Source: a virus (lineage: Duplodnaviria > Heunggongvirae > Uroviricota > Caudoviricetes). From it: a stretch of DNA of 15,134 bases. The number at the start of each line of letters is the position of its first letter. Position 1 is the first letter of the stretch. Positions 2,177 to 15,134 of this stretch are shown here, piece after piece. Made by a program: the position numbers and the translations under genes. Below the pieces are notes generated by a model. The model was not told the DNA's origin. It did not search any database and saw nothing but the letters and a program-made list of their open reading frames with translations. The stretch is from the IMG/VR virus record IMGVR_UViG_2648501400_000006; one strand, 5' to 3'.

Positions 2177-2568
2177 AACATACTGATATCCGTGCTGCAG
2201 TGCTGGATGCACTGGAGCTGCATGAACACGGGGCGACGCTGTTTGATGGTCGCCCCGTTGTTTTTGACGAAGAGGATTTTCCCGCGGTCGCGGTTTATCT
2301 GACGGATGCAGAGTATACCGGTGAAGAGCTGGATGCAGATACCTGGCGGGCCACACTGCATATTGAAGTGTTCCTACCGGCACAGGTACCGGATTCAGAG
2401 CTGGATTCGTGGATGGAAACCCGGATTTATCCGGCGATGACCGCGATCCCGGCACTGGCAGACATGATTACCACGATGGTTAAGCAGGGCTATGACTATC
2501 GTCGTGATGACGATATGGCGTTATGGAGCTCTGCAGATCTGACTTATTCCATTACATACGAGATGTGA
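2173..2568 (+). CDS. U: Tail tube terminator protein U-like
   Basis: 131 aa; [74 protein letters not shown]…YDYRRDDD…[13 protein letters not shown] is near-identical in pattern to lambda gpU. Confidence 0.9.
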
Positions 2569-2575
2569 GGACGAT

Positions 2576-3295
2576 ATGCCAACACCAAATCCCCTGGAGC
2601 CGGTAAAAGGTGCCGGTACCACCCTGTGGGTTTACAACGGCAAGGGTGACGCCTATGCAAACCCGTTGTCAGACGATGACTGGCAGCGACTGGCTAAGGT
2701 GAAGGATCTGACGCCGGGCGAGATGACGGCAGAACCCTACGATGATAACTACCTGGATGATGAAGACGCGGACTGGACCGCGACCGGGCAGGGACAGAAA
2801 TCTGCAGGAGATACCAGTTTTACACTGGCCTGGAAACCGGGAGAAGAAGGTCAGAAAGGGCTTATAGGCTGGTTTGAAAGCGGGGATGTGCGGGCCTATA
2901 AAATCCGTTTTCCGAACGGCACGGTGGATGTGTTTCGTGGCTGGATCAGCAGTATCGGTAAGGCAGTGACGGCGAAAGAAGTGATCACCCGAACAGTGAA
3001 AGTGACCAACGTGGGCAAACCTTCCGTAGCGGAAGAACGCAGCAAAATTACGCCGGCCACTGCAATTAAGGTGACACCGACATCCGGTACCGTGGAAAAA
3101 GGAAAAACAACCACCCTGACGGTTTCTTTTGAGCCGGAAAGTGCAACCGACAAGACGTTCAGAGCGGTTTCCGCCGATCCGTCAAAAGCAACCATTACTG
3201 TGAAAGATATGACAATCACGGTAAACGGCGTGAAGACAGGAAAAGTGCAGTATCCCCGTGATGACCGGAAATGGTCAGTTCGCCACAGTAGCTGA
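2576..3295 (+). CDS. V: Major tail tube protein V-like; last ~13 codons out of the ancestral frame (apparent 1-nt insertion near 3251)
   Basis: GAGGA RBS at 2567-2571. 239-aa ORF matches lambda gpV ([68 protein letters not shown]…[42 protein letters not shown]…) up to …TITVNGV.TGKV, then ends [14 protein letters not shown]. The shifted frame 3249-3329 encodes [26 protein letters not shown], which resembles the lambda gpV C-terminus (…[21 protein letters not shown]). Confidence 0.85.
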
Positions 3296-3342
3296 AGTCA
3301 CCGTTACTGAAGCGGGCGCTGCAGGGTAAACGGAGGTAATAC

Positions 3343-3774
3343 ATGTTTCTGAAAACAGAACAATTTGAATATAACGGTGTGTCCGTCACGCTTTCCGAAT
3401 TGTCTGCGCTGCAGCGTATTGAGCATCTTGCCCTCCTGAAACGGCGTGCAGAACAGGCAGAATCCAGCGGCAACCTGCAGGTAAGCGTGGAAGATCTCGT
3501 CAGAACCGGCGCGTTTCTGGTGGCGATGTCCCTGTGGCATAACCATCCGCAGAAAACGGCATCACCGTCAATGAATGAGGCCGTGATGCAGATCGAACAG
3601 GAAGTCCTCACCACCTGGCCTGCGGATGCCATTGCCCGGGCGGAAGATGTGGTGTTGCGTCTGTCCGGGATGAGCGGGCCTGTTCATGCGGATACGGACA
3701 GCACCGAAGTGGCGAAAAATAACGCGCTGACTGATGATGATTTTTCTGCGGGAAAGTCTTCGACGGCGAGCTGA
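3343..3774 (+). CDS. G: Tail assembly chaperone G
   Basis: GGAGG RBS at 3329-3335; 143 aa MFLKTE.FE.NGV.VTLSELSALQRIEHLAL.KR.AEQAES…TGAFLVAMSLWHNHPQKT…SMNEAV.QIEQEVLTTWP… matches lambda gpG. Confidence 0.9.
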   Translation: MFLKTEQFEYNGVSVTLSELSALQRIEHLALLKRRAEQAESSGNLQVSVEDLVRTGAFLVAMSLWHNHPQKTASPSMNEAVMQIEQEVLTTWPADAIARAEDVVLRLSGMSGPVHADTDSTEVAKNNALTDDDFSAGKSSTAS

Positions 3775-4214
3775 ATTTTGCCCTCAGACTGGCGCGTGAG
3801 ATGGGGAGGCCTGACTGGCGCGCCATGCTTGCCGGGATGACATCCACCGAATATGCCGACTGGCGACATTTTTACCGCACGCATTATTTTCACGATACCC
3901 AACTGGATATGCATTTTTCCGGGCTGACGTACGCCGTACTCAGCCTGTTTTTTTGCGATCCGGATATGCATCCCTCTGATTTCAGTCTGCTTGCCCCCCG
4001 GCATGAGGAAGAGCAGACGGAGAGGCCGGATGAGGAAAAAATGCTGATGCAGAAAGCGGCAGGACTTGCCGGAGGCGTCCGGTTCGGTGGGGACGGAGGG
4101 CGCGAGATTTTATCGTCTGCGGATGTGGCGGATGTCAGCGAGGATGATGCCGCATTAATGATGGCTTCAGCGGGGATTCCCGGAGGTGTGAGATATGTCC
4201 CAGCCGGTTGGTGA
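3343..4214 (+). CDS. T: Tail assembly chaperone G-T fusion made by programmed -1 ribosomal frameshift at 3750-3756
   Basis: The T-frame (frame 0) has no own start/RBS and is open from the slippery site to TGA 4212-4214; its translation (…MGRPDWRAMLAGM.STEYADW..FY.THYFHD..LDMHFSGLTY.VLSLFF.DPDMHP.DFSLL…LMQKAAGLAGGVRFG…) matches lambda gpT. Slippery heptamer G-GGA-AAG sits in the G zero frame 19 nt before the G stop. Confidence 0.8.
3750..3756 (+). promoter_or_regulatory. -1 programmed ribosomal frameshift slippery heptamer GGGAAAG (G/G-T)
   Basis: Sequence GCG GGA AAG with GGA and AAG as in-frame G codons (codon start 3751 is in frame with the G ATG at 3343); same heptamer and relative position as the lambda G-T frameshift site. 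Confidence 0.75.
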
Positions 4215-6775
4215 TCTTGTTATTGACCTGAGTCTGGATGCGGTCCGTTTCGATGAGCAGATGAGCCGGGTAAGGCGTCATTTTTCAGGACTGGAGACCG
4301 ACGCCAGAAAAACCGCCAGTGCTGTTGAACAGAACCTGAGCCGCCAGGCGCTGGCTGCACAAAAAGCCGGGATTTCCGTCGGGCAGTATAAAGCGGCCAT
4401 GCGAACCCTGCCCGCACAGTTTACGGATATCGCCACGCAGCTTGCCGGTGGTCAGAATCCCTGGCTGATCCTGCTGCAACAGGGCGGTCAGGTGAAGGAC
4501 TCCTTCGGCGGGATGATCCCCATGTTCAGGGGGCTTGCCGGTGCGATCACCCTGCCGATGGTCGGGGTCACCTCGCTGGCGGTGGCGACAGGTGCGCTGG
4601 CGTACGCCTGGTACCAGGGAGATTCCACGCTTTCAGCGTTTAATAAAACCCTGGTTCTTTCCGGTAATCAGTCCGGACTGACTGCCGATCGCATGCTGAC
4701 GCTCTCAAGAGCCGGACAGGCAGCAGGGCTGACGTTTAACCAGGCGAGAGAGTCACTGGCAGCCCTGGTGAATGCCGGTGTGCGTGGTGGTGAACAGTTT
4801 GATGCCATCAACCAGAGTGTCGCGCGTTTTGCGTCTGCATCCGGTGTGGAGGTGGACAAAGTCGCAGAAGCCTTCGGAAAACTGACCACCGACCCGACGT
4901 CGGGACTGATGGCGATGGCGCGCCAGTTCCGTAACGTGACGGCAGAGCAGATTGCGTATGTTGCACAGCTGCAGCGTTCCGGAGACGAGGCCGGGGCATT
5001 ACAGGCGGCGAACGATATCGCCACGAAAGGCTTTGATGAGCAGACCCGTCGCCTGAAAGAAAACATGGGAACACTGGAGACCTGGGCGGATAAAACAGGG
5101 AAGGCATTCAAATCGATGTGGGATGCCATTCTGGATATCGGTCGTCCTGAGTCCTCAGCGGATATGCTCGCCAGTGCACAGAAGGCATTTGATGAGGCGG
5201 ATAAAAAATGGCAGTGGTACCAGAGCCGGAGCCAGCGCCGCGGAAAAACCGCCTCTTTCCGGGCCAACCTTCAGGGCGCATGGAATGACCGGGAAAATGC
5301 CCGTCTGGGGCTGGCAGCGGCCACGCTGCAGTCGGATATGGAAAAAGCCGGTGAACTGGCCGCCAGGGACCGGGCCGAACGGGACGCATCACAGCTGAAG
5401 TATACCGGAGAGGCGCAGAAGGCGTATGAGCGTCTGCTGACGCCGCTGGAGAAATATACCGCCCGTCAGGAAGAACTGAATAAGGCACTGAAAGACGGGA
5501 AAATCCTGCAGGCAGATTACAACACGCTGATGGCGGCGGCGAAAAAGGACTATGAAGCGACGCTGAAAAAGCCGAAACAGTCAGGAGTCAAAGTGTCAGC
5601 CGGCGAGCGTCAGGAAGACCAGTGCGCATGCTGCCCTGCTGACGCTTCAAACAGAACTCCGGACGCTGGAAAAACACACCGGAGCGAATGAGAAAATCAG
5701 CCAGCAGCGTCGCGATTTATGGAAAGCGGAAAATCAGTATGCGGTCCTGAAAGAGGCAGCCACGAAACGGCAGTTATCTGAGCAGGAAAAATCCCTGCTG
5801 GCCCATGAGAAAGAGACGCTGGAGTACAAACGCCAGCTGGCTGAGCTGGGAGACAAAGTTGAACACCAGAAACGGCTGAATCAGCTGGCACAGCAGGCTG
5901 CGCGGTTTGAACAGCAGCAGAGCGCGAAGCAGGCGGCAATCAGCGCAAAAGCCCGCGGACTCACCGACCGTCAGGCGCAGCGGGAGTCGGAAGAGCAGCG
6001 CCTTCGTGACGTGTACGGTGATAATCCGGATGCGCTGGCGAAGGCCACATCTGCACTGAAGAACACCTGGTCTGCGGAGGAGCAGCTTCGTGGAAGCTGG
6101 ATGGCCGGTCTGAAGTCCGGCTGGGGCGAGTGGGCAGAAAGTGCGACGGACAGTTTTTCGCAGGTTAAAAGCGTGGCCACGCAGACCTTTGACGGTATTG
6201 CACAGAATATGGCAGCGATGCTGACCGGCAGCGAACAGAACTGGCGTGGTTTCACCCGTTCTGTGCTCTCCATGCTGACAGAGATTTTTCTGAAGCAGGC
6301 GATGGTGGGGATAGTCGGGAGTATCGGCAGCGCCATTGGCGGTGCTTTCGGTGGTGGTGCGTCTGCCTCCACGGGGACGGCCATTCAGGCTGCGGCGGCG
6401 AACTTCCATTTCGCGACCGGGGGATTTACGGGGACGGGGGGTAAATATGAACCTGCGGGAATTGTTCATCGCGGGGAGTTTGTCTTCACGAAGGAGGCAA
6501 CCAGCCGGATTGGCGTCGGCAACCTGTATCGTCTGATGCGCGGGTATGCGGAAGGTGGTTATGTGGGCGGTGCCGGAAGTCCGGCGCAGATGCGGCGGGC
6601 GGAAGGCATTAGTTTTAATCAGAACAATCACGTGGTGATTCAGAACGACGGTATCAACGGACAGGCAGGGCCGCAGCTGATGAAAGCGGTGTATGACATG
6701 GCCCGCAAGGGGGCGCAGGATGAGATTCAGGCGCAGATGCGTGATGGCGGCGTATTTTCCGGAGGCAGGCGATGA
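4195..6775 (+). pseudogene. H: Tail tape-measure protein H-like, split by an apparent +1 frameshift near 5619-5620 (N-part frame 1: 4195-5691; C-part frame 2: about 5567-6775)
   Basis: GGAGGTG RBS at 4179-4185. The 4195 ORF matches lambda gpH from the N-terminus (…VGDLV.DLSLDA.RFDEQM.RVRRHFSG…GISVGQYKAAMR.LPAQFTD.ATQLAGGQ.PWLILLQQGGQVKDSFGGMIPMFRGLAGAITLPMVG…) through …KKPKQS.VKVSAG.RQED, then reads QCACCPADASNRTPDAGKTHRSE*. Frame 2 from 5621 reads SAHAALLTLQ.ELRTLEKH.GANEKISQQRRDLWKAENQ… and continues through …AGIVHRGEFVFTKEATSRIGVGNLYRLMRGYA.GGYVG… to TGA 6773-6775, matching the lambda gpH continuation. Removing one C at 5619/5620 (GAAGAC[C]AGTGCG) restores one ORF of ~859 aa. Frame 2 has a stop at 5564-5566, so the switch must lie in 5567-5691. 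Confidence 0.75.
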
Positions 6776-7101
6776 AAACCTTTCGCTGGAAAGTGAAGCC
6801 GGATATGGAGGTGAACTCGCAGCCGTCGGTGCGTGAAGTGCGTTTTGGTGACGGGTATTCGCAGCGTATGGCTGCGGGGCTGAATGCTGACCTGAAAACA
6901 TACCGTGTGACGCTTTCCGTGACCCGGGAGGAGGCCCGACATTTGGAGGCGTTCCTGGCAGAGCACGGTGGCTGGAAGGCGTTTCTGTGGACACCGCCTT
7001 ATGCCTGGCGGCAGATAAAGGTGACCTGTGCCGCCTGGTCATCACGGGTTCGCATGCTGCGGGTTGAATTCAGTGCCGAGTTTAAGCAGGTGGTGAACTG
7101 A
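6772..7101 (+). CDS. M: Tail tip assembly protein M-like
   Basis: 109 aa, the lambda gpM size; GGAGG RBS at 6756-6760; ATGA overlap with the H stop; positioned between H and L. Confidence 0.9.
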   Translation: MKTFRWKVKPDMEVNSQPSVREVRFGDGYSQRMAAGLNADLKTYRVTLSVTREEARHLEAFLAEHGGWKAFLWTPPYAWRQIKVTCAAWSSRVRMLRVEFSAEFKQVVN

Positions 7102-7799
7102 TGCAGGATATTCACGAAGAAAGTCTGAACGAGTCGGTTAAATCAGAGCAGTCACCGCGGGTGGTACTCTGGGAAATCGACCTGACGGTACAGGGTGGTG
7201 AGCGGTATTTTTTCTGCAATGAGCTGAATGAAAAAGGGGAGGCGGTTACCTGGCAGGGGCGGCAATATCAGGCATACCCGATTGACGGCAGTGGCTTTGA
7301 GATGAACGGGAAGGGCAGCAGTGCCAGACCGTCGCTGACGGTGTCCAATCTGTTTGGTCTGGTCACCGGGATGGCGGAGGACCTGCAGAGCCTGGTGGGG
7401 GCCACGGTGGTCCGCCGCCGGGTGTATGCCCGTTTTCTGGATGCGGTGAATTTTGTGGCAGGCAATCCGGAAGCGGACCCGGAGCAGGAGCTGAGCGACC
7501 GCTGGGTGGTGGAGCAGATGTCAGAGCTGACGGCCATGACGGCCTCGTTTGTGCTGGCGACACCGACCGAGACGGACGGGGCGCTGTTTCCTGGTCGCAT
7601 CATGCTGGCGAACACCTGTATGTGGGATTACCGGGGAGATGAATGCGGGTATAACGGTCCTGCGGTGGCGGATGAGTTCGACAACCCCACCACGGATATC
7701 CGTAAGGACAGATGCAGCAAGTGCATGCGCGGGTGTGAGATGCGCGGCATGGTGGCTAATTTTGGCGGTTTCCTTTCCATTAACAAACTTTCGCAGTAA
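7101..7799 (+). CDS. L: Tail tip protein L-like
   Basis: 232 aa, the lambda gpL size; TGATG overlap with the M stop; conserved Cys-rich C-terminus (…CMWDYRGDECGYNGPAVADEFDNPT.DI.KD.CSKC…) as I recall for gpL. Confidence 0.9.
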   Translation: MQDIHEESLNESVKSEQSPRVVLWEIDLTVQGGERYFFCNELNEKGEAVTWQGRQYQAYPIDGSGFEMNGKGSSARPSLTVSNLFGLVTGMAEDLQSLVGATVVRRRVYARFLDAVNFVAGNPEADPEQELSDRWVVEQMSELTAMTASFVLATPTETDGALFPGRIMLANTCMWDYRGDECGYNGPAVADEFDNPTTDIRKDRCSKCMRGCEMRGMVANFGGFLSINKLSQ

Positions 7800-7804
7800 A
7801 TCCA

Positions 7805-8483
7805 ATGACACAGACAGAATCAGCGATTCTGGCGCATGCCCGGCGGTGTGTGCCTGCGGAGTCGTGCGGCTTCGTGGTGAGAACGCCGGAGGGGGAGCGG
7901 TATATCCCTTGTGTGAATATCTCTGCAGAGCCGGAGGCGTATTTTCGTATTGCACCGGAAGACTGGCTGCGGGCAGAGATGCAGGGGGAGATTGTGGCAC
8001 TGGTCCACAGTCATCCCGGTGGTCTGCCGGGGGGAAATTCATAAATTCCGCTGTGTACCACATCTGACAGGACGGCGCTTTGAGCACGGGGTGACGGACT
8101 GTTACACGCTGTTCCGGGATGCCTACCATCTGGCGGGAATTGATATGCCGGATTTTGAGCGTGAGGATGACTGGTGGCGCAACGGTCAGAACCTTTACCT
8201 GGACAATATGGCGGTCACCGGCTTTTACCGGGTGCCCCTGTCCTCTGCACAGGCGGGCGATATCCTGCTGTGCTGCTTTGGCGCATCGGTGGCCAATCAT
8301 GCCGCCATTTACTGCGGCAACGGTGAACTGCTTCACCATCTGCCTGAACAACTGAGTAAACGGGAGAGGTATTCCGAAAAATGGCAACGACGAACGCATT
8401 CTGTCTGGCGTCACCGCCACTGGCACGCATCTGCCTTCACGGGGATTTGCAACGATTTGGCCGCCGCCTCAGCCTGTATGTGA
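7805..8483 (+). pseudogene. K: Tail tip assembly protein K-like (MPN/JAMM + NlpC/P60), disrupted: N-part frame 2 (7805-8044, stop TAA 8042-8044), C-part frame 0 (about 8028-8483)
   Basis: 7805 ORF: MTQTESAILAHARRC.PAESCGFVV.TPEGERY.PCVNIS.EPEA…EDWL.AEMQGEIVALVHSHPGGLP then GGNS*. Frame 0 from ~8028: RGEIHKFRCVPHLTGRRFEHGVTDCYTLFRDAYHLAGI.MPDF.REDDWWRNGQNLYLDN…LLCCFG.SV.NHAAIYCG.GELLHH.PEQLSKRERY..KWQRRTHS.WRHR.W.ASAFTGI.NDL.AAS… ending TGA 8481-8483 and overlapping I by 103 nt. The HxH of a JAMM motif is present but the expected downstream S-x-x-D is missing; the junction coincides with a G6 run (8029-8034). From memory of lambda K, about 22 codons are absent, implying a ~65-bp out-of-frame deletion. 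Confidence 0.65.
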
Positions 8484-9061
8484 ACACGGCAGCGGAAGCC
8501 ATCCGGGCGCTGTCGTTACAGGTGCCGGGATTCCGCCGTCAGATGAACGAAGGCTGGTACCAGATACGTATTCGCGGTGAGGACACGGCACCGGAGGCGG
8601 TGTACGCCCGTCTTCACGAACCTCTGGGTGAGGGGGCGGTCATCCACATTGTGCCGCGACTGGCCGGAGCCGGAAAGGGCGGACTGCAGATTGTGCTGGG
8701 GGCGGCGGCCATCGTGGGGTCGTTCTTCACTGCCGGGGCATCAATGGCGTTATGGGGTTCAGCCCTGGCAGCCGGCGGTTTTTCTGCCACCACGATGCTG
8801 TTTTCACTGGGGGCCGGCATGATTCTGGGTGGTGTGGCTCAGATGCTTGCCCCGAAGGCCAAAGTACCGGAGTACAAAAGCACGGATAACGGCAGACAGA
8901 ACACGTATTTTTCGTCACTGGACAACATGATTGCCCAGGGGAACCCGATGCCGGTGCCTTACGGGGAAATGCTGGTTGGCTCCCGCCGTATATCCCAGGA
9001 CATCAGTACCCGTGATGAAGGCGGTGACGGGAAGGTGGTGGTTATCGGGCGGCAGGCATAA
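8381..9061 (+). CDS. I: Tail tip assembly protein I-like
   Basis: 226 aa; …LASP..ARICL.GDLQRFGRR…AEAIRAL..Q.P.FR…GWYQ.RI.G.D…GAVIHIVPR.AGA..GG.QIVLGAAAI.GSFFTAGA…FSLGA.M.LGGVAQMLAPKA..P…TDNG.QNTYFSSLDNM.AQGN..PV.YGEM.VGSR..SQ.IST.DEG…VVVIGR matches lambda gpI; starts 103 nt before the K stop. Confidence 0.9.
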   Translation: MATTNAFCLASPPLARICLHGDLQRFGRRLSLYVNTAAEAIRALSLQVPGFRRQMNEGWYQIRIRGEDTAPEAVYARLHEPLGEGAVIHIVPRLAGAGKGGLQIVLGAAAIVGSFFTAGASMALWGSALAAGGFSATTMLFSLGAGMILGGVAQMLAPKAKVPEYKSTDNGRQNTYFSSLDNMIAQGNPMPVPYGEMLVGSRRISQDISTRDEGGDGKVVVIGRQA

Positions 9062-9066
9062 AAGCG

Positions 9067-9104
9067 AAAAAATCCCGCAGTGCTCACGGACAGGAACTGC
9101 GGGA
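9067..9104 (-). terminator. Minus-strand intrinsic terminator candidate (stem 9073-9080/9097-9104 followed on the minus strand by T6 = complement of A6 at 9067-9072)
   Basis: Read directly: AAAAAA-TCCCGCAG-(16-nt loop)-CTGCGGGA on the + strand; on the - strand this is hairpin then TTTTTT. Located about 150 nt past the sodC stop in the sodC transcription direction, abutting the I stop. Confidence 0.45.
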
Positions 9105-9221
9105 GCGTTACGAAGATTGAGTGTAAGGAATTATTCTTATGTCACGACAAAAACATTAACTCAGAGAGGGAGGATGTGCCGTTCTTTTCAGGGAGAAAGG
9201 ATTTATCGTCCTGAGGAATAA

Positions 9222-9245
9222 AGGTAAGGGGCCCGCCCCTTACCT
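9222..9245 (-). terminator. GC-rich 10-bp hairpin (AGGTAAGGGG-CCCG-CCCCTTACCT) 6 nt downstream of the sodC stop; weak U-tract
   Basis: Perfect inverted repeat read in sequence; on the - strand it is followed by TTTATTCCTC. Could be a sodC terminator or transcript-stabilising hairpin. Confidence 0.4.
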
Positions 9246-9251
9246 GACTGA

Positions 9252-9779
9252 TTATTGAATGATGCCGCAGGCCATTCTCGCACCACCACCGCCCAGGGAC
9301 TCCGGATGGTCATGATGGTTATCACCGCCAGCATGAAGCATGAGAGAACGCCCTTTAATCTCTTTTAATGAGTTCAGTCTCGGGGCCAGGACCGGGTAGT
9401 TCGCTTTTCCGTCATGCGTCACGAACAGCGCAGGGAGGTCGCCCAGGTGTCCATCCGGAGACCAGGGGCCAAGATGTTTGCCGGTGTTTTTCGGGTCAAA
9501 GTGACCGCCAGCCGATAATGCTGCGACCGGTTTTCCGTCTTTCAGTGCCGGGGCGCAATTTCCTTTTTCGTGCACATGAAAACCATGAATGCCTTCAGAC
9601 AGAGAGTGAAGGGCTGGTGTGAACAGCAGACCGTAGGGGGTCTCCTGAATGGTTATTTTTCCAATGCTGACTTCTTTTCCGTCAGCACTGACAAGGTTCA
9701 TTGGGACTTCCTGTTCTGCTGCGTATCCGCATGATGCTGCTGTCAGCATGGCAATAGCAGCAATGATTTTACATTTCAT
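9252..9779 (-). CDS. sodC: Periplasmic Cu,Zn superoxide dismutase (prophage-encoded SodC)
   Basis: Minus-strand ORF; chosen start is the ATG at 9777-9779 ([20 protein letters not shown]… signal-peptide-like N-terminus) with GAGGA RBS 4 nt upstream. Translation contains hallmark Cu,Zn-SOD motifs (…[22 protein letters not shown]…AGGHFDP..TGKH.GP…[14 protein letters not shown]…APRL.SL.EIKG.SLM.H.GGDN..D.P..LGGGGAR.ACGIIQ). The longer 9252-10286 ORF in the track is an upstream read-through without support. Confidence 0.9.
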
Positions 9780-9912
9780 AAAATCCTCATTAATTCCGTT
9801 AACAGACTGAGCTTGCTGGTTACAGGGTAACAAACAGCGTTCTGATGATATCGCGCAATAGCTGTGCAATATCCTGTCACTGCGATTAATAATACCAATT
9901 GAGAGGAACATT
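9780..9912. promoter_or_regulatory. Divergent sodC/J intergenic region; presumed sodC promoter (exact -35/-10 not resolved)
   Basis: 133-bp AT-richer spacer between the sodC start (minus) and the J start (plus); sodC is antisense to the late operon so needs its own promoter here. I could not confidently assign sigma70 hexamers by eye. Confidence 0.3.
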
Positions 9913-12900
9913 ATGGGCAAAGGTGGCGGCAGGGCGCACACGCCTCGAGAGGCGAAGGATAATCTCAAATCCACGCAGATGATGAGTGTGATTGATGCGA
10001 TTGGTGAGGGACCGATAGAAGGCCCGGTGAAGGGGCTGCAGAGTATCCTGGTGAACAAAACCCCGCTGACGGACACGGACGGCAATCCTGTGATACACGG
10101 TGTGACCGCGGTCTGGCGCGCCGGGGAGCAGGAGCAGACACCACCGGAAGGCTTTGAGTCCTCCGGAGCTGAAACCGGACTGGGCGTGGAAGTGACGAAG
10201 GCAAAGCCGGTAACGCGCACCATTACATCCGCGAACATTGACCGCCTGCGGGTCACCTTCGGGGTGCAGTCACTGTTGGAGACCACCTCAAAGGGCGACC
10301 GTAATCCCTCTTCTGTCCGACTGCTGATTCAGTTGCAGCGTAACGGTAACTGGGTGACGGAAAAGGATGTCACCATTAACGGCAGGACCACCTCACAGTA
10401 CCTGGCGTCGGTGATTCTGGAGAATCTGCCTGAGCGGCCCTTTAACATCCGGATGGTCCGGGAGACAGCGGACAGCACCTCGGACCAGCTGCAGAATAAG
10501 ACGCTCTGGTCGTCATACACCGAAATCATCGATGTGAAACAGTGCTACCCGAACACGGCGATTGTGGGGCTGCAGGTGGATGCGGAGCAGTTTGGCGGTC
10601 AGCAGATGACGGTGAACTACCATATCCGAGGTCGCATCATCCAGGTGCCGTCAAACTATGACCCGGAAAAACGCACGTACAGCGGCATCTGGGACGGCAG
10701 CCTGAAACCGGCATACAGCAACAACCCGGCCTGGTGCCTGTGGGACATGCTGACTCACCCGCGCTACGGCATGGGAAAACGTCTGGGGGCGGCAGACGTG
10801 GACAAATGGGCGCTGTATGCCATCGGGCAGTACTGCGACCAGACGGTCCCGGATGGTTTCGGGGGCACAGAGCCGCGGATGACCTTTAATGCGTACCTGT
10901 CACAACAGCGTAAGGCATGGGATGTGCTCAGTGATTTCTGCTCGGCGATGCGATGTATGCCGGTATGGAACGGCCAGACGCTGACGTTCGTTCAGGACCG
11001 CCCGTCGGATGTGGTGTGGCCGTACACCAACTGCGATGTGGTGGTGGATGATAACGGCGTGGGGTTTCGCTACAGCTTCAGCGCCCTGAAGGACCGCCAC
11101 ACGGCGGTGGAGGTGAATTACACCGACCCGCAGAACGGCTGGCAGACCTCCACGGAACTGGTGGAAGACCCGGAAGCCATACTGCGCTACGGGCGCAACC
11201 TGCTGAAGATGGATGCGTTCGGTTGCACCAGTCGCGGTCAGGCCCACCGTGCCGGGCTGTGGGTGATAAAGACCGGACTGCTGGAAACGCAGACGGTGGA
11301 TTTCACGCTCGGGTCACAGGGGCTGCGTCACACACCCGGTGACATTATTGAAATCTGTGATAACGACTATGCCGGGACCATGACCGGCGGACGTATCCTG
11401 TCCATCGATGCCGCCAGCCGCACCCTGACACTGGACCGTGAGGTGACCCTGCCGGAGACAGGTGCCGCCACGGTGAACCTGATTAACGGCAGCGGTAAGC
11501 CGGTGAGCGTGGCCATCACTGCACACCCCGCGCCGGACCGGATACAGGTCAGCACCCTGCCTGATGGTGTGGAGACATACGGTGTATGGGGACTCTCCCT
11601 GCCGTCACTACGTCGTCGCCTGTTCCGCTGTGTCTCCATCCGGGAAAACACGGACGGCACCTTTGCCATCACGGCGGTGCAGCACGTACCGGAAAAAGAA
11701 GCCATTGTGGATAACGGGGCCAGCTTTGAGCCACTGTCCGGTTCGCTGAACAGCGTCATCCCGCCGGCTGTGCAGCACCTGACGGTGGAGGTGAGCGCGG
11801 CTGACGGTCAGTATCTGGCACAGGCGAAATGGGACACGCCGCGGGTGGTGAAGGGTGTGCGCTTCAGTCTGCGCCTGACCAACGGAAGCGGAGAAGACAG
11901 CCGTCTGGTGACCACCGCCATCACTGCGGATACAGAGCATCGTTTCAGTGGTCTGCCGCTCGGGGAATACACCCTGACAGTCAGGGCAATTAACAGTTAT
12001 GGCCAGCAGGGCGAACCGGCCACCACCACCTTCCGGATTAACGCGCCAGCAAAACCCGCCACCATTGAACTGACGCCGGGGTATTTTCAGATAACGGCGG
12101 TCCCGCGTCTTGCGGTGTATGACCCGACGGTACAGTTTGAGTTCTGGTTTTCGGAGGCAAAAATCGCAGACACATCTCAGGTGGAAACCTCTGCCCGTTA
12201 TCTGGGGACCGGCAGTCAGTGGAGTGTATCCGGCCCGCACATTAAGCCCGGGAAGGATTTCTGGTTTTACGTGCGCAGCGTCAACCTGGTGGGGAAATCT
12301 GCGTTTGTGGAAGTCAGCGGGCAGCCCAGCAATGATGGTGAAGGGTATCTGGAATTTTTCCGGGAAAAAATAGGAAAACTGCATCTGGCTCAGGGGCTAT
12401 GGGAGCTGATAGACAACAGCCAGCTTGCGGATGAGATGGCGGAGATGAAGACCACCATCACCGAAACCCGCAATGAAATCACACAGACGGTCAGTAAAAC
12501 GCTGGAAGACCAGAGCGCCACCATTCAGCAGATACAGCGCGTGCAGAAGGACACAAATGATGACCTGGCTGCGCTGTACATGCTGAAGGTTCAAAAAACG
12601 AAAGACGGCATTCCCTATGTGGCCGGGATTGGTGCAGGGATTGAGGATACTGATGGCCAGCCACTGAGCAACATACTGCTGCTGGCTGACCGTATCGCGA
12701 TGATAAATCCGGAGAGCGGCAACAGCACTCCGTTATTTGTGGCGCAGGGGAATCAGCTGTTCATGAACGACGTGTTCCTGAAGCGTCTGTTTGCGGCGAG
12801 TATCACGTCATCCGGCAACCCCCCGACGTTTTCCCTGACGCCGGAAGGGAAGCTGACAGCCAGGAACGCGGATATCAGCGGAGCAATTACCGCGAATACC

Positions 12901-13389
12901 GGCACGCTCAATAATGTCACCATTAACGAGAACTGTGTCATCAGAGGGAAACTGTCTGCAAACCAGATTGAAGGCGACCTGGTGAAGACGGTGGGGAAAG
13001 CCTTTCCCCGGAATAACAGTTATGCCAGCGGGACGGTAACCGTCACAGTTTACGATGACCAGGGCTTCGACCGGCAGATTATCATTCCCCCGGTGCTGTT
13101 TCGCGGGACGAAACACCAGAATTTCAACAGCCCGAATCAGCAGTCGTACTGGTATTCCACCTGTAAGCTGCAGGTGCTGAAGAACGGGGTTGAGATTTTC
13201 CATGAACCGGCAACGGATGTCAGCCGGGTGTTCTCATCGGTGATAGATATGCCGGCAGGGCGGGGTCATGTCACCCTGACGTTTAATGTGTCGTCGGCCG
13301 GTGCGAACAACTGGACGCCGACAACGTACATCAGTGATTTACTGGTTGTGGTCATGAAAAAATCCACGGCAGGGATCAGTATCAGCTGA
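9913..13389 (+). CDS. J: Tail tip / host-specificity protein J-like (central tail fibre)
   Basis: 1158 aa; GAGAGGAA RBS at 9901-9908; N-terminus MGKG…[35 protein letters not shown]… and long stretches (…[52 protein letters not shown]…[34 protein letters not shown]…[32 protein letters not shown]…[17 protein letters not shown]…) match lambda gpJ; the C-terminal ~150 aa diverge. Confidence 0.9.
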
Positions 13390-13408
13390 CGGTTTATTAA
13401 CCCGGACG

Positions 13409-13432
13409 GGCACCTCAGGAGGTGCCTTTTTT
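13409..13432 (+). terminator. Intrinsic terminator after J (stem 13409-13415/13420-13426, loop CAGG, T6 at 13427-13432)
   Basis: GGCACCT-CAGG-AGGTGCC-TTTTTT read directly, 20 nt after the J stop. Confidence 0.6.
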
Positions 13433-13457
13433 ATTGACTGAAAACAAAGAGGTAATC

Positions 13458-14081
13458 ATGCGGCATTTATACGCAACGATATTATTGTTTACTACCCTGC
13501 TGGCAGGAATTGCCTTTCCTGCACAGGCTGAAAGCGGACACGGTGCATTTTCCGTGGGATATGCTCAGGTTCACCCGGGCGGCGTACCGGCATTGTCCGG
13601 TACCGGTGCGCGTGCAGGTGATTTAAAAGGGATTAATGTGAAATACCGTTATGAGTTCACGGATCACCTGGGCGGCATTGTCGCGCTGAGTTATGCATCG
13701 GTGAAGAAAAGTGACACGATGAAGACGGGTGAAAATACCTTCCATTATGAAAGCCTGCGCGGTCGTTATGTCAGTCTGATGGCCGGCCCTGTCTGGCAGC
13801 TCAGTGAGCGGGTCAGTCTCTATGGCATGGCCGGGATGGCGTACACCCGCTGGTCTGACAGTGTTCAGGATTACCGGCGTGATGAAGTGAAACCGGGGTA
13901 TGTGAAGGAGACCACCACCGCCAGTGATGGTCATACTGCGCGTCATCTGTCGCCGGCCTGGAATGCCGGGATTCAGTTCAGTCCCGTAGAGACGGTGGTT
14001 ATTGACCTTGCTTATGAAGGTTCCGGCAGTGGCGACTGGCGCACTGACGGTTTCATCGTGGGTGTCGGCTATAAATTCTGA
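13458..14081 (+). CDS. lom: Lom outer-membrane protein (Ail/Lom/PagC family)
   Basis: ATG at 13458 with GAGG RBS (13448-13451); signal peptide MRHLYATILLFTTLLAGIAFPAQA; …GINVKYRYEFTD.LG…MAGP…YEGSGSGDWRTDGFIVGVGYKF matches lambda Lom including the identical C-terminus. The upstream GTG at 13422 lies inside the J terminator and was not chosen. Confidence 0.9.
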   Translation: MRHLYATILLFTTLLAGIAFPAQAESGHGAFSVGYAQVHPGGVPALSGTGARAGDLKGINVKYRYEFTDHLGGIVALSYASVKKSDTMKTGENTFHYESLRGRYVSLMAGPVWQLSERVSLYGMAGMAYTRWSDSVQDYRRDEVKPGYVKETTTASDGHTARHLSPAWNAGIQFSPVETVVIDLAYEGSGSGDWRTDGFIVGVGYKF

Positions 14082-14107: not shown

Positions 14108-14134
14108 AGCCCGCCGGTTCAGGCGGGCTTTTTT
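14108..14134 (+). terminator. Intrinsic terminator after lom (stem AGCCCGCC/GGCGGGCT, loop GGTTCA, T-tract 14130-14134)
   Basis: Perfect 8-bp GC-rich inverted repeat followed by TTTTT(T), 27 nt after the lom stop. Confidence 0.6.
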
Positions 14135-14145
14135 GTGGGGTGAAT

Positions 14146-15134
14146 ATGGCAGTAAAGATTTCAGGTGTACTGAAAGACGGCACAGGAAAACCGGTACAGA
14201 ACTGCACCATTCAACTGAAAGCCAGACGGACCAGCACCACGGTGGTGGTGAACACGCTGGCCTCAGAAAATCCGGATGAAGCCGGGCGTTACAGCATGGA
14301 CGTTGAGTACGGTCAGTACAGCGTTATTCTGTTGGTGGAAGGGTTCCCGCCGTCACATGCCGGGACCATCACCGTGTATGAAGATTCTCAACCCGGTACG
14401 CTGAATGATTTTCTCGGTGCCATGACGGAGGAGGATGCCCGGCCGGAGGCACTGCGCCGTTTTGAACAGATGGTGGAAGAGGTGGCGCGTCACGCTGAGG
14501 AGGCGAAGAAGAATGCCGGAGAGGCGGAGACGTCAGCGAGGAATGCCGGCATATCAGCCAGTCAGGCAGAAGAGAGCGCTGCAAATGCTGACACTTCAGC
14601 AGGGGAGGCATCGGAGTCAGCCCGGCAGGCGGCAGAAAGTGCAGCCTCAGCAAAGCAGTCAGAGGATGCGTCCTCGTCCTCGGCTTCTGCGGCCGCTCAA
14701 AAAGCCAGTGAGTCATCACAAAGTGCAGCAGAAGCTGAATTGTCAAGAAAGACGGCAGAAAGTGCAGCCGGTAATGCAGCCAGGGATGCAACGACCGCAA
14801 CAGAAAAAGCCCGGGAGTCAGCAGAAAGCGCACAGTCAGCGGAACAAAGCAGGATAGCGGCGGAAGAGGCCGTAAACCGAATCCCCACCGTGGTGGGACC
14901 TCCCGGGCCAAAGGGGGAACAGGGGCCCGCGGGTCCTCAGGGGCCGAAGGGTGATAAGGGAGAGCGCGGTGACACCGGCCCTGTCGGGGCAACCGGCGAA
15001 CGGGGACCGGCAGGTGATGCTGGTCCGGCAGGCCCGCAGGGGCCGAAAGGTGACAGGGGAGAGCGGGGAGAGACCGGTCTGACGGGAAATGCAGGTCCAC
15101 AGGGTCCAAAGGGAGATACCGGTGCGGCAGGCCC
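14146..15134 (+). CDS. stf: Side tail fibre protein Stf-like, 3'-truncated by window edge; carries collagen-like Gly-X-Y repeats
   Basis: Translated by hand (not in the ORF track because no stop lies within the window): [111 protein letters not shown]… is near-identical to the lambda Stf N-terminus; followed by an Ala/Ser/Glu-rich low-complexity segment and, from 14896, [79 protein letters not shown]…. Confidence 0.85.
14896..15134 (+). repeat. Collagen-like triplet repeat (GGN-NNN-NNN)n coding region inside stf
   Basis: At least 26 consecutive Gly-X-Y triplets in frame with stf, continuing to the window end; this also creates the long Pro-rich shadow ORF on the opposite strand (14369-15109). 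Confidence 0.85.

Follow-up and report, generated by a model that had tools for sequence, protein, structure and literature searches.

What does it mean when a prophage carries sound accessory genes among broken tail genes? The question is raised by the 15,134-base stretch of DNA analysed here (the window), one complete contig of a draft assembly of E. coli type (JHSW01000103.1, assembly GCA_001266175.1). Its genes are those of the late part of a lambda-like prophage, for head and tail: E, FI, FII, Z, U, V, G/T, H, M, L, K, I, J, lom and stf, with sodC in reverse orientation between I and J. A preliminary description, made from the sequence alone, had noted that within positions 2576 to 9061, which do run from the start of V to the stop of I, the tail genes V, H and K each carry a different frame-disrupting lesion, while the cargo genes sodC and lom and the small tail genes look intact. 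It offered two explanations: a cryptic prophage in decay that retains host-beneficial cargo, or a consensus of low quality. We hold with good confidence that the three lesions are real mutations. The decay they represent is of an ordinary, well-documented kind, with nothing beyond known prophage biology, and the intactness of sodC and lom is what chance predicts rather than demonstrated selection.

The lesions were placed by global alignment to the best match among complete genomes, a prophage of E. coli 2015C-4136CT1 (L001, 97.4% identity; hereafter the reference), whose genes are annotated as intact. Four insertions or deletions separate the two over the whole window: an extra C at 877, an extra T at 3251, an extra T at 5623 and a 65-base deletion at 8019/8020. 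The last three give the exact sites at which V, H and K are interrupted, as the preliminary description had said. FI, FII, Z, U, G, the T frame, M, L, I, sodC, J and lom are as long as their counterparts in the reference and have a single stop, at the end of the frame; the reported soundness of the cargo and of the small genes Z, U, G, M, L and I is borne out as well. The extra C at 877 was considered as a fourth lesion, or as a marker of the sequencing pipeline, and set aside: it is intergenic, in a hairpin after E (865-886), and the form with five Cs is the common allele. The window's own copies and L007 and L008, related contigs described below, have it, as do 17 more public contigs, and among these sequences the four-C form occurs only in the reference. 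It is a harmless length variant. All coordinates below refer to the plus strand unless stated otherwise.

V encodes the major tail tube protein; repaired, it would occupy 2576-3329 (250 residues), and as written its open reading frame runs from 2576 to 3295 (239 residues). The additional T at 3251 stands exactly after codon 225 of 250, in the context CAG-T-ATC and outside any homopolymer, and swaps the last 25 residues for 14 out-of-frame ones; deleting it restores a 250-residue V that ends as in the reference. The Pfam match to Phage_TTP_12 is complete (residues 18-152), and that to Big_2 is reduced to profile positions 2-62 of 79, against 1-79 in the reference. The truncated protein thus appears to keep the whole tube-forming domain and to lose only the last strands of the outer immunoglobulin-like domain. 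Because lambda whose gpV lacks the entire C-terminal domain still makes tails, at about 100-fold lower activity (PMC8718954), this lesion probably weakens V without being lethal.

In the tape measure gene, H (4195-6775), the extra T at 5623 falls exactly after codon 476 of 859 (context CAG-T-GCG, no homopolymer). It is followed by 22 out-of-frame residues and a stop at 5691, leaving an N-terminal reading frame of 498 residues (4195-5691) and a remainder that is open from 5624 to 6775; deletion of the T gives an 859-residue H ending as in the reference. By Pfam, the first part matches TMP_2 and the second, in a different frame, Tape_meas_lam_C. The gap between the two listed reading frames, 5691-6011, was considered as a second lesion and rejected: the frame is open throughout 5624-6775 and merely lacks an ATG, GTG or TTG before 6011. 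In lambda, gpH sets tail length, and the helix at its C-terminus (residues 818-842) is located in the tail tip together with gpI (PMC10721106). By analogy, a product that ends at residue 476, without the tail-tip part, should not work.

K, a tail tip assembly gene (7805-8483), has lost 65 bases after nucleotide 215 of the gene. The frame then stops at 8044, so that the N-terminal reading frame (7805-8044) has 79 residues, and the NlpC/P60 part continues in another frame to 8483. In the intact relatives, three of which (L001, L007 and L008) hold the same 65 bases, the missing stretch is flanked by a 9-bp direct repeat, TGGTCTGCC, with its two copies 65 bases apart; the window keeps a single copy at 8011-8019, at the deletion junction. 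Microhomology of this kind is typical of replication slippage. The Prok-JAB match is cut at profile position 79 of 114, and NLPC_P60 is found only in the other frame, where the reference K has both; the deletion takes the Ser and Asp of the metalloprotease (JAMM) motif H-x-H-x7-S-x2-D (HSHPGGLPWLSEAD in the reference). With half of that motif gone and the NlpC/P60 domain out of frame, K would be knocked out. The intact gene of the window's relatives encodes 247 residues; lambda K has about 199. From lambda genetics, H and K are both essential for particle formation, and a segment in which H stops at 476 of 859 residues and K lacks these parts reads as that of a defective prophage. For annotation this means that V, H and K of the contig should be marked as pseudogenes, not as separate short genes.

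The strongest indication of how the lesions arose comes from other contigs. JHTA01000061.1 (L003/L008) encodes exactly the same truncated H protein, and the V frameshift is present both there and on JHTC01000063.1 (L007). In a four-way alignment both T insertions are found in the window and in these two contigs, and K is intact in the latter two. The insertions lie inside a block shared by all three (3113-6300), over which the window differs from JHTA01000061.1 at three single nucleotides in 3,188 bases and agrees with it against the reference at 62 positions; the flanks are 2-3% different, and over the whole window the two contigs differ at 291 positions. JHTC01000063.1 and JHTA01000061.1 differ from each other at six positions, one of which turns H codon 139 from TGG to the nonsense codon TAG (position 6586 of L007, aligned to window position 4610). 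A search with a degenerate pattern for the V junction located a fourth carrier of the V insertion, L067, which is identical to the window over 3005-3383 only (379 bases); its flanks differ from those of the window and make a third background for this extra T. The damage therefore looks nested, with the V and H lesions shared, the K deletion seen in the window alone and the H nonsense codon in JHTC01000063.1 alone, and nesting is the pattern expected of inherited mutations. Changes inside the shared block since its common ancestor (two synonymous, one non-synonymous and one nonsense) are too few to test. The preliminary description had called the three lesions independent; this stands for the K deletion, which is private to the window, and has to be given up for the V and H insertions, which travel together on the 3.2-kilobase block. 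The comparison with related strains that it had proposed thus returned the V and H insertions in JHTA and JHTC, and that of V in L067, with the K deletion confined to the window.

How far, then, might the lesions be errors of a low-quality draft consensus that conceals really intact tail genes? Several observations weigh against our interpretation and in favour of this one. The sequence comes from a draft assembly, as one short contig, and the lesion calls rest on assembled consensus sequences. Every carrier is an unannotated NCBI draft, three of them with the neighbouring accession prefixes JHSW, JHTA and JHTC, and a shared pipeline is possibly the common cause of the recurring insertions. 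None of the three lesions occurs among the best-matching complete genomes listed from a search of 5,426 complete E. coli genomes, and none of them in the metagenome collection; in the viral collection only the V insertion was met, in L067. The K deletion was found in one assembly, that of the window, across the complete E. coli, metagenome and viral collections. The search for the same V and H alleles in intact form found none either; the closest sequences reach 95.5% identity for the end of V and 98.0% for the block. Loss of function, for its part, is read from sequence. Both insertions, moreover, consist of a single T placed straight after an in-frame CAG codon, a coincidence to be noted. 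A common mutational cause for the two was sought and not found: the intact H site, CCAGG, is a Dcm site and the V site is not, and no convincing shared motif or palindrome is present.

Against a faulty consensus stands the recurrence itself, as random error cannot produce the same two insertions again in contigs separated from the window by 291 differences. Indel errors peculiar to a sequencing platform cluster in homopolymers, and neither T lies in one. The K deletion runs exactly between 9-bp repeats, as is typical of slippage, and repeats so short would not lead a k-mer assembler astray. The lesions are nested across strains, with an additional nonsense codon in JHTC. Apart from the three lesions the contig is clean: no other gene is disrupted, the sole other indel, at 877, is a common allele, identity to the reference is 100% over 1-1000 and 13001-13500 with one mismatch in 13501-14000, and substitutions elsewhere in the window are strongly biased to synonymous sites and so respect codon positions. 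An artefact is accordingly improbable. It is the combination of recurrence in other contigs, nesting, sites outside homopolymers, a deletion flanked by repeats and an otherwise clean contig that favours real mutations, and the low-quality consensus put forward in the preliminary description loses most of its ground.

If the insertions are real, how did they come to lie in such different surroundings? At a fine grain the window is a mosaic: it matches the reference over 1-1474 and 13001-14000 and JHTA01000061.1 over 3113-6300 and 8195-8449, and it resembles neither over 2367-3103, 6301-7592 and 8848-12819. Such a mosaic could come from phage recombination or, less likely, from chimeric assembly of co-resident prophages. 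Temperate phages swap DNA with defective prophages by relaxed homologous recombination (PMC3945230), which fits the mosaic seen here. The sharing differs by backbone: the window and JHTA/JHTC have the 3.2-kilobase block from frameshifted V through G and T to frameshifted H, and L067 has only the 379-base end of frameshifted V. One may therefore suppose that homologous recombination, beyond vertical inheritance, has put the same frameshifted segments into at least three lambda-like prophage backbones. We consider this rather doubtful; it is plausible from the mosaic, depends on correct draft assembly, and would be a modest extension of known recombination between prophages. If true, inactivating lesions would spread sideways through the pool of related prophages, and might be tolerated, even favoured, as recipients lose the ability to make tails.

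The rarity of the broken alleles was gauged in several ways. Queries of 101 bases over the T insertions matched nothing in the complete E. coli genomes; this is uninformative alone, as nearby single-nucleotide differences leave no 28-base seed, and the 3.2-kilobase block was used as the query instead. Its 30 best matches among the 5,426 complete genomes are all two to three bases shorter than the query and lack the two extra bases. The H junction with its extra T has no match in the metagenome or viral collections, where the intact junction has 9 and 49 matches, respectively; the V junction with its extra T has one match in the viral collection (L067), against at least 120 for the intact form. 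Further carriers can be screened for with three k-mers, GGAAGACCAGTGCGCATGCTGCC, AAGTGCAGTATCCCCGTGATGAC and CATCCCGGTGGTCTGCCGGGGGGAAAT. The alleles seem to belong to a rarely sampled lineage, met to date only in broken form, and this agrees with an element that has ceased to spread as a phage.

With no intact copies of these V and H alleles at hand, the age of the insertions can be estimated only from the ratio of non-synonymous to synonymous substitution rates (dN/dS) and from the lack of further damage. Computed on repaired frames against intact relatives, dN/dS is 0.10-0.17 for V, 0.04-0.12 for H and 0.04-0.21 for K, beside 0.10, 0.03 and 0.25 for the intact J, L and I. Almost all of the divergence of V, H and K would then have built up while these genes still worked. 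Because their substitutions still look like those of working genes and no second frame-breaking change has accrued in the window, the lesions should be young relative to the divergence of the genes.

Broken tail genes are not peculiar to this lineage. Tail-gene integrity was scored in 58 public contigs that have an intact H junction, many of them drafts in which some breaks may be errors. H is broken in 6 of 35 scored copies, L in 4 of 31, K in 2 of 33, J in 2 of 13, G in 1 of 39 and Z in 1 of 20; no break was seen in V (27 scored), M (47) or sodC (10), and about six of the 58 contigs have two or more broken genes. Eight scores of a broken I are only variant C-termini or stops at codons 191-193, and two calls in which no stop was found are probably edge effects. 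Tail modules with several lesions are thus a common sight among public sequences, with breaks most frequent in the longest genes.

Does the contrast between cargo and tail nevertheless carry meaning? sodC (9252-9779, minus strand) encodes a Cu/Zn superoxide dismutase of 175 residues, as in the reference (Pfam Sod_Cu, E = 1.3e-31), and has a terminator-like hairpin with a 10-bp stem just downstream (9245-9222, minus strand). lom (13458-14081) encodes 207 residues (Pfam Ail_Lom, E = 8.5e-51) and is bracketed by terminator-like hairpins at 13408-13427 and 14108-14129. By this structure both would be morons: they are unrelated to phage growth, lie between late genes and have terminator-like hairpins of their own. 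A simple and crude scan for the sigma-70 consensus gave no promoter near either gene. Intact cargo of this kind invites the idea of adaptive domestication, in which selection favoured the loss of tails, or kept sodC and lom while the phage genes decayed. Further encouragement might be taken from the related contigs, in which sodC is intact in all ten scorable copies and H is broken in 6 of 35, and from the persistence of the broken V-H block in more than one prophage background.

The numbers do not carry this idea far. Of about 14,650 coding bases, sodC and lom together account for 1,152 (7.9%), and three lesions placed at random would spare both with a probability of 0.78; that all three would land in tail genes has a probability of 0.41. 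The cargo shows no significant deficit of lesions, such as would mark a domesticated prophage. H is broken most often simply as the longest target after J. The contrast in dN/dS between tail genes and sodC, proposed in the preliminary description as a check, has been computed and does not separate them: V, H and K behave like the intact tail genes, with no relaxed selection, and sodC, at only two to three differences from its relatives, is uninformative. Its low dS (0.008, against 0.13 for I and 0.10 for J) indicates a cassette recently shared among otherwise different prophages, not selection at the protein level. Domestication is in our judgement quite unlikely. Since the cargo is a small share of the sequence, its survival beside broken phage genes is expected by chance and is no evidence of selection, and the pattern that the preliminary description took for a signature loses that standing; of its decaying cryptic prophage with retained cargo, the decay is favoured by recurring and nested lesions, and the selective retention is unsupported. 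A general caution follows: unless tested at the level of populations, sound cargo among damaged phage genes should not be taken as a sign of selection.

The course of events under ordinary decay may be sketched as follows. The two single-T insertions, in V and in H, would have arisen in an ancestor and now sit on the 3.2-kilobase block, which several related draft genomes share. K would have lost its 65 bases later, in the line of this strain only, by slippage between the 9-bp direct repeats. With V weakened and H and K knocked out, the prophage would be unable to build working tails from its own genes. sodC and lom, as separate inserts with their own terminators and independent of the tail genes, would have remained untouched.

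Inability to make tails from one's own genes need not mean immobility. The prophage might be defective only in cis, with co-resident lambda-like prophages supplying intact V, H and K, and its genome, sodC and lom included, packaged and transferred. A related module is present in 4,383 of the 5,426 complete E. coli genomes, and the carriers have a median of three and up to 14 such places per genome. Prophages of O157 Sakai with morphogenesis defects have been found packaged, and some of them transferred, by complementation (PMC2669165). All visible head genes of the window, and J, are intact. On the other hand, the window holds no repressor, integrase, replication, lysis or terminase gene, nor the rest of the genome, and helpers in this strain are hypothetical; the broken alleles occur in only four contigs of very large collections, which fits poor horizontal spread. 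Continued mobility with help is possible, though on the unlikely side. Transfer of sodC and lom from this prophage would in any case need helper prophages.

Decay of this kind has close parallels. The lambdoid prophages of E. coli O157 Sakai mostly carry frameshifts, deletions and insertion-sequence insertions in morphogenesis genes; they recombine and can be complemented by co-residents (PMC2669165). The window resembles Sp3-Sp15 of O157:H7 Sakai (Asadulghani et al. 2009, PMC2669165) in its lambda-like late layout, in having virulence-related inserts among the tail genes and in the defects of the tail genes themselves; in Sakai, several similar prophages share one genome and recombine with and complement one another. 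It differs in being an E-to-stf segment only, and in that no complete E. coli genome searched is more than 97.4% identical to it over 2576-9061. A stably inherited single-base frameshift in a tail gene is also known from laboratory lambda, the 'wild type' of which has a frameshifted stf (PMC10721106); there, however, the lesion is in a dispensable side fibre and the phage is viable, whereas the window is hit in the essential H and K. Comparable prophage remnants, the cryptic ones described in E. coli K-12 (Wang et al. 2010, PMC3105296), are kept in the chromosome and are non-inducible, and some have genes that benefit the host. Those are old and heavily deleted; the window has lost almost nothing and carries three or four recent, point-like lesions.

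In other respects the window is a conventional lambda-like tail module. Its Pfam families fit every gene, in the order expected for a lambda-like siphophage (Z-U-V-G/T-H-M-L-K-I-J), the slippery site is in place and lom follows J, as in lambda; it departs from lambda in the opposite-strand sodC between I and J and in the interruption of V, H and K, frames expected to be intact in a working module. Over 2576-9061 its DNA is 93-95% identical to named lambda-like and Shiga-toxin phages. The edges of the contig fall within E and stf and leave neither host flank nor attachment site; the close relatives are chromosomal.

Among the intact genes, Z (1643-2176, tail completion, Minor_tail_Z), U (2173-2568, tail terminator, Phage_tail_U), M (6772-7101, tail tip, Phage_min_tail) and L (7101-7799, tail tip, Phage_tail_L) all have the lengths of their counterparts in the reference. 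So does J (9913-13389, 1158 residues, GpJ domains), the central tail fibre and determinant of host specificity. The side tail fibre gene stf is represented by its N-terminal part (14146-15134, phage_tail_N and Collagen), cut by the contig end. In the prophage of the reference the type III effector gene nleB2 lies at 20395-20549, just past the tail fibre genes; the window stops short of that point.

The tail tip gene I (8381-9061, Lambda_tail_I) probably starts at the ATG at 8381, giving 226 residues, rather than at the GTG at 8480, giving 193. The longer form scores 56.7 bits against Lambda_tail_I (profile positions 3-83) and the shorter 35.2 bits (26-83); a GGAGAGG-like site stands upstream of the ATG, and the long form overlaps the last 103 bases of K in a different frame (8381-8483). 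The 193-residue GTG form is the one annotated in RefSeq relatives.

The tail assembly chaperone gene G (3343-3774, Phage_TAC_2) has near its end the slippery heptamer GGGAAAG (3750-3756), a predicted -1 frameshift site, beyond which the T frame (Phage_tail_T), also intact, is open to 4214. Over 3801-4214 the T frame differs from the reference by ten non-synonymous and three synonymous substitutions, a dN/dS of about 1 in a small sample and unlike that of every neighbouring gene; the eight amino-acid changes that result are scattered and mostly conservative.

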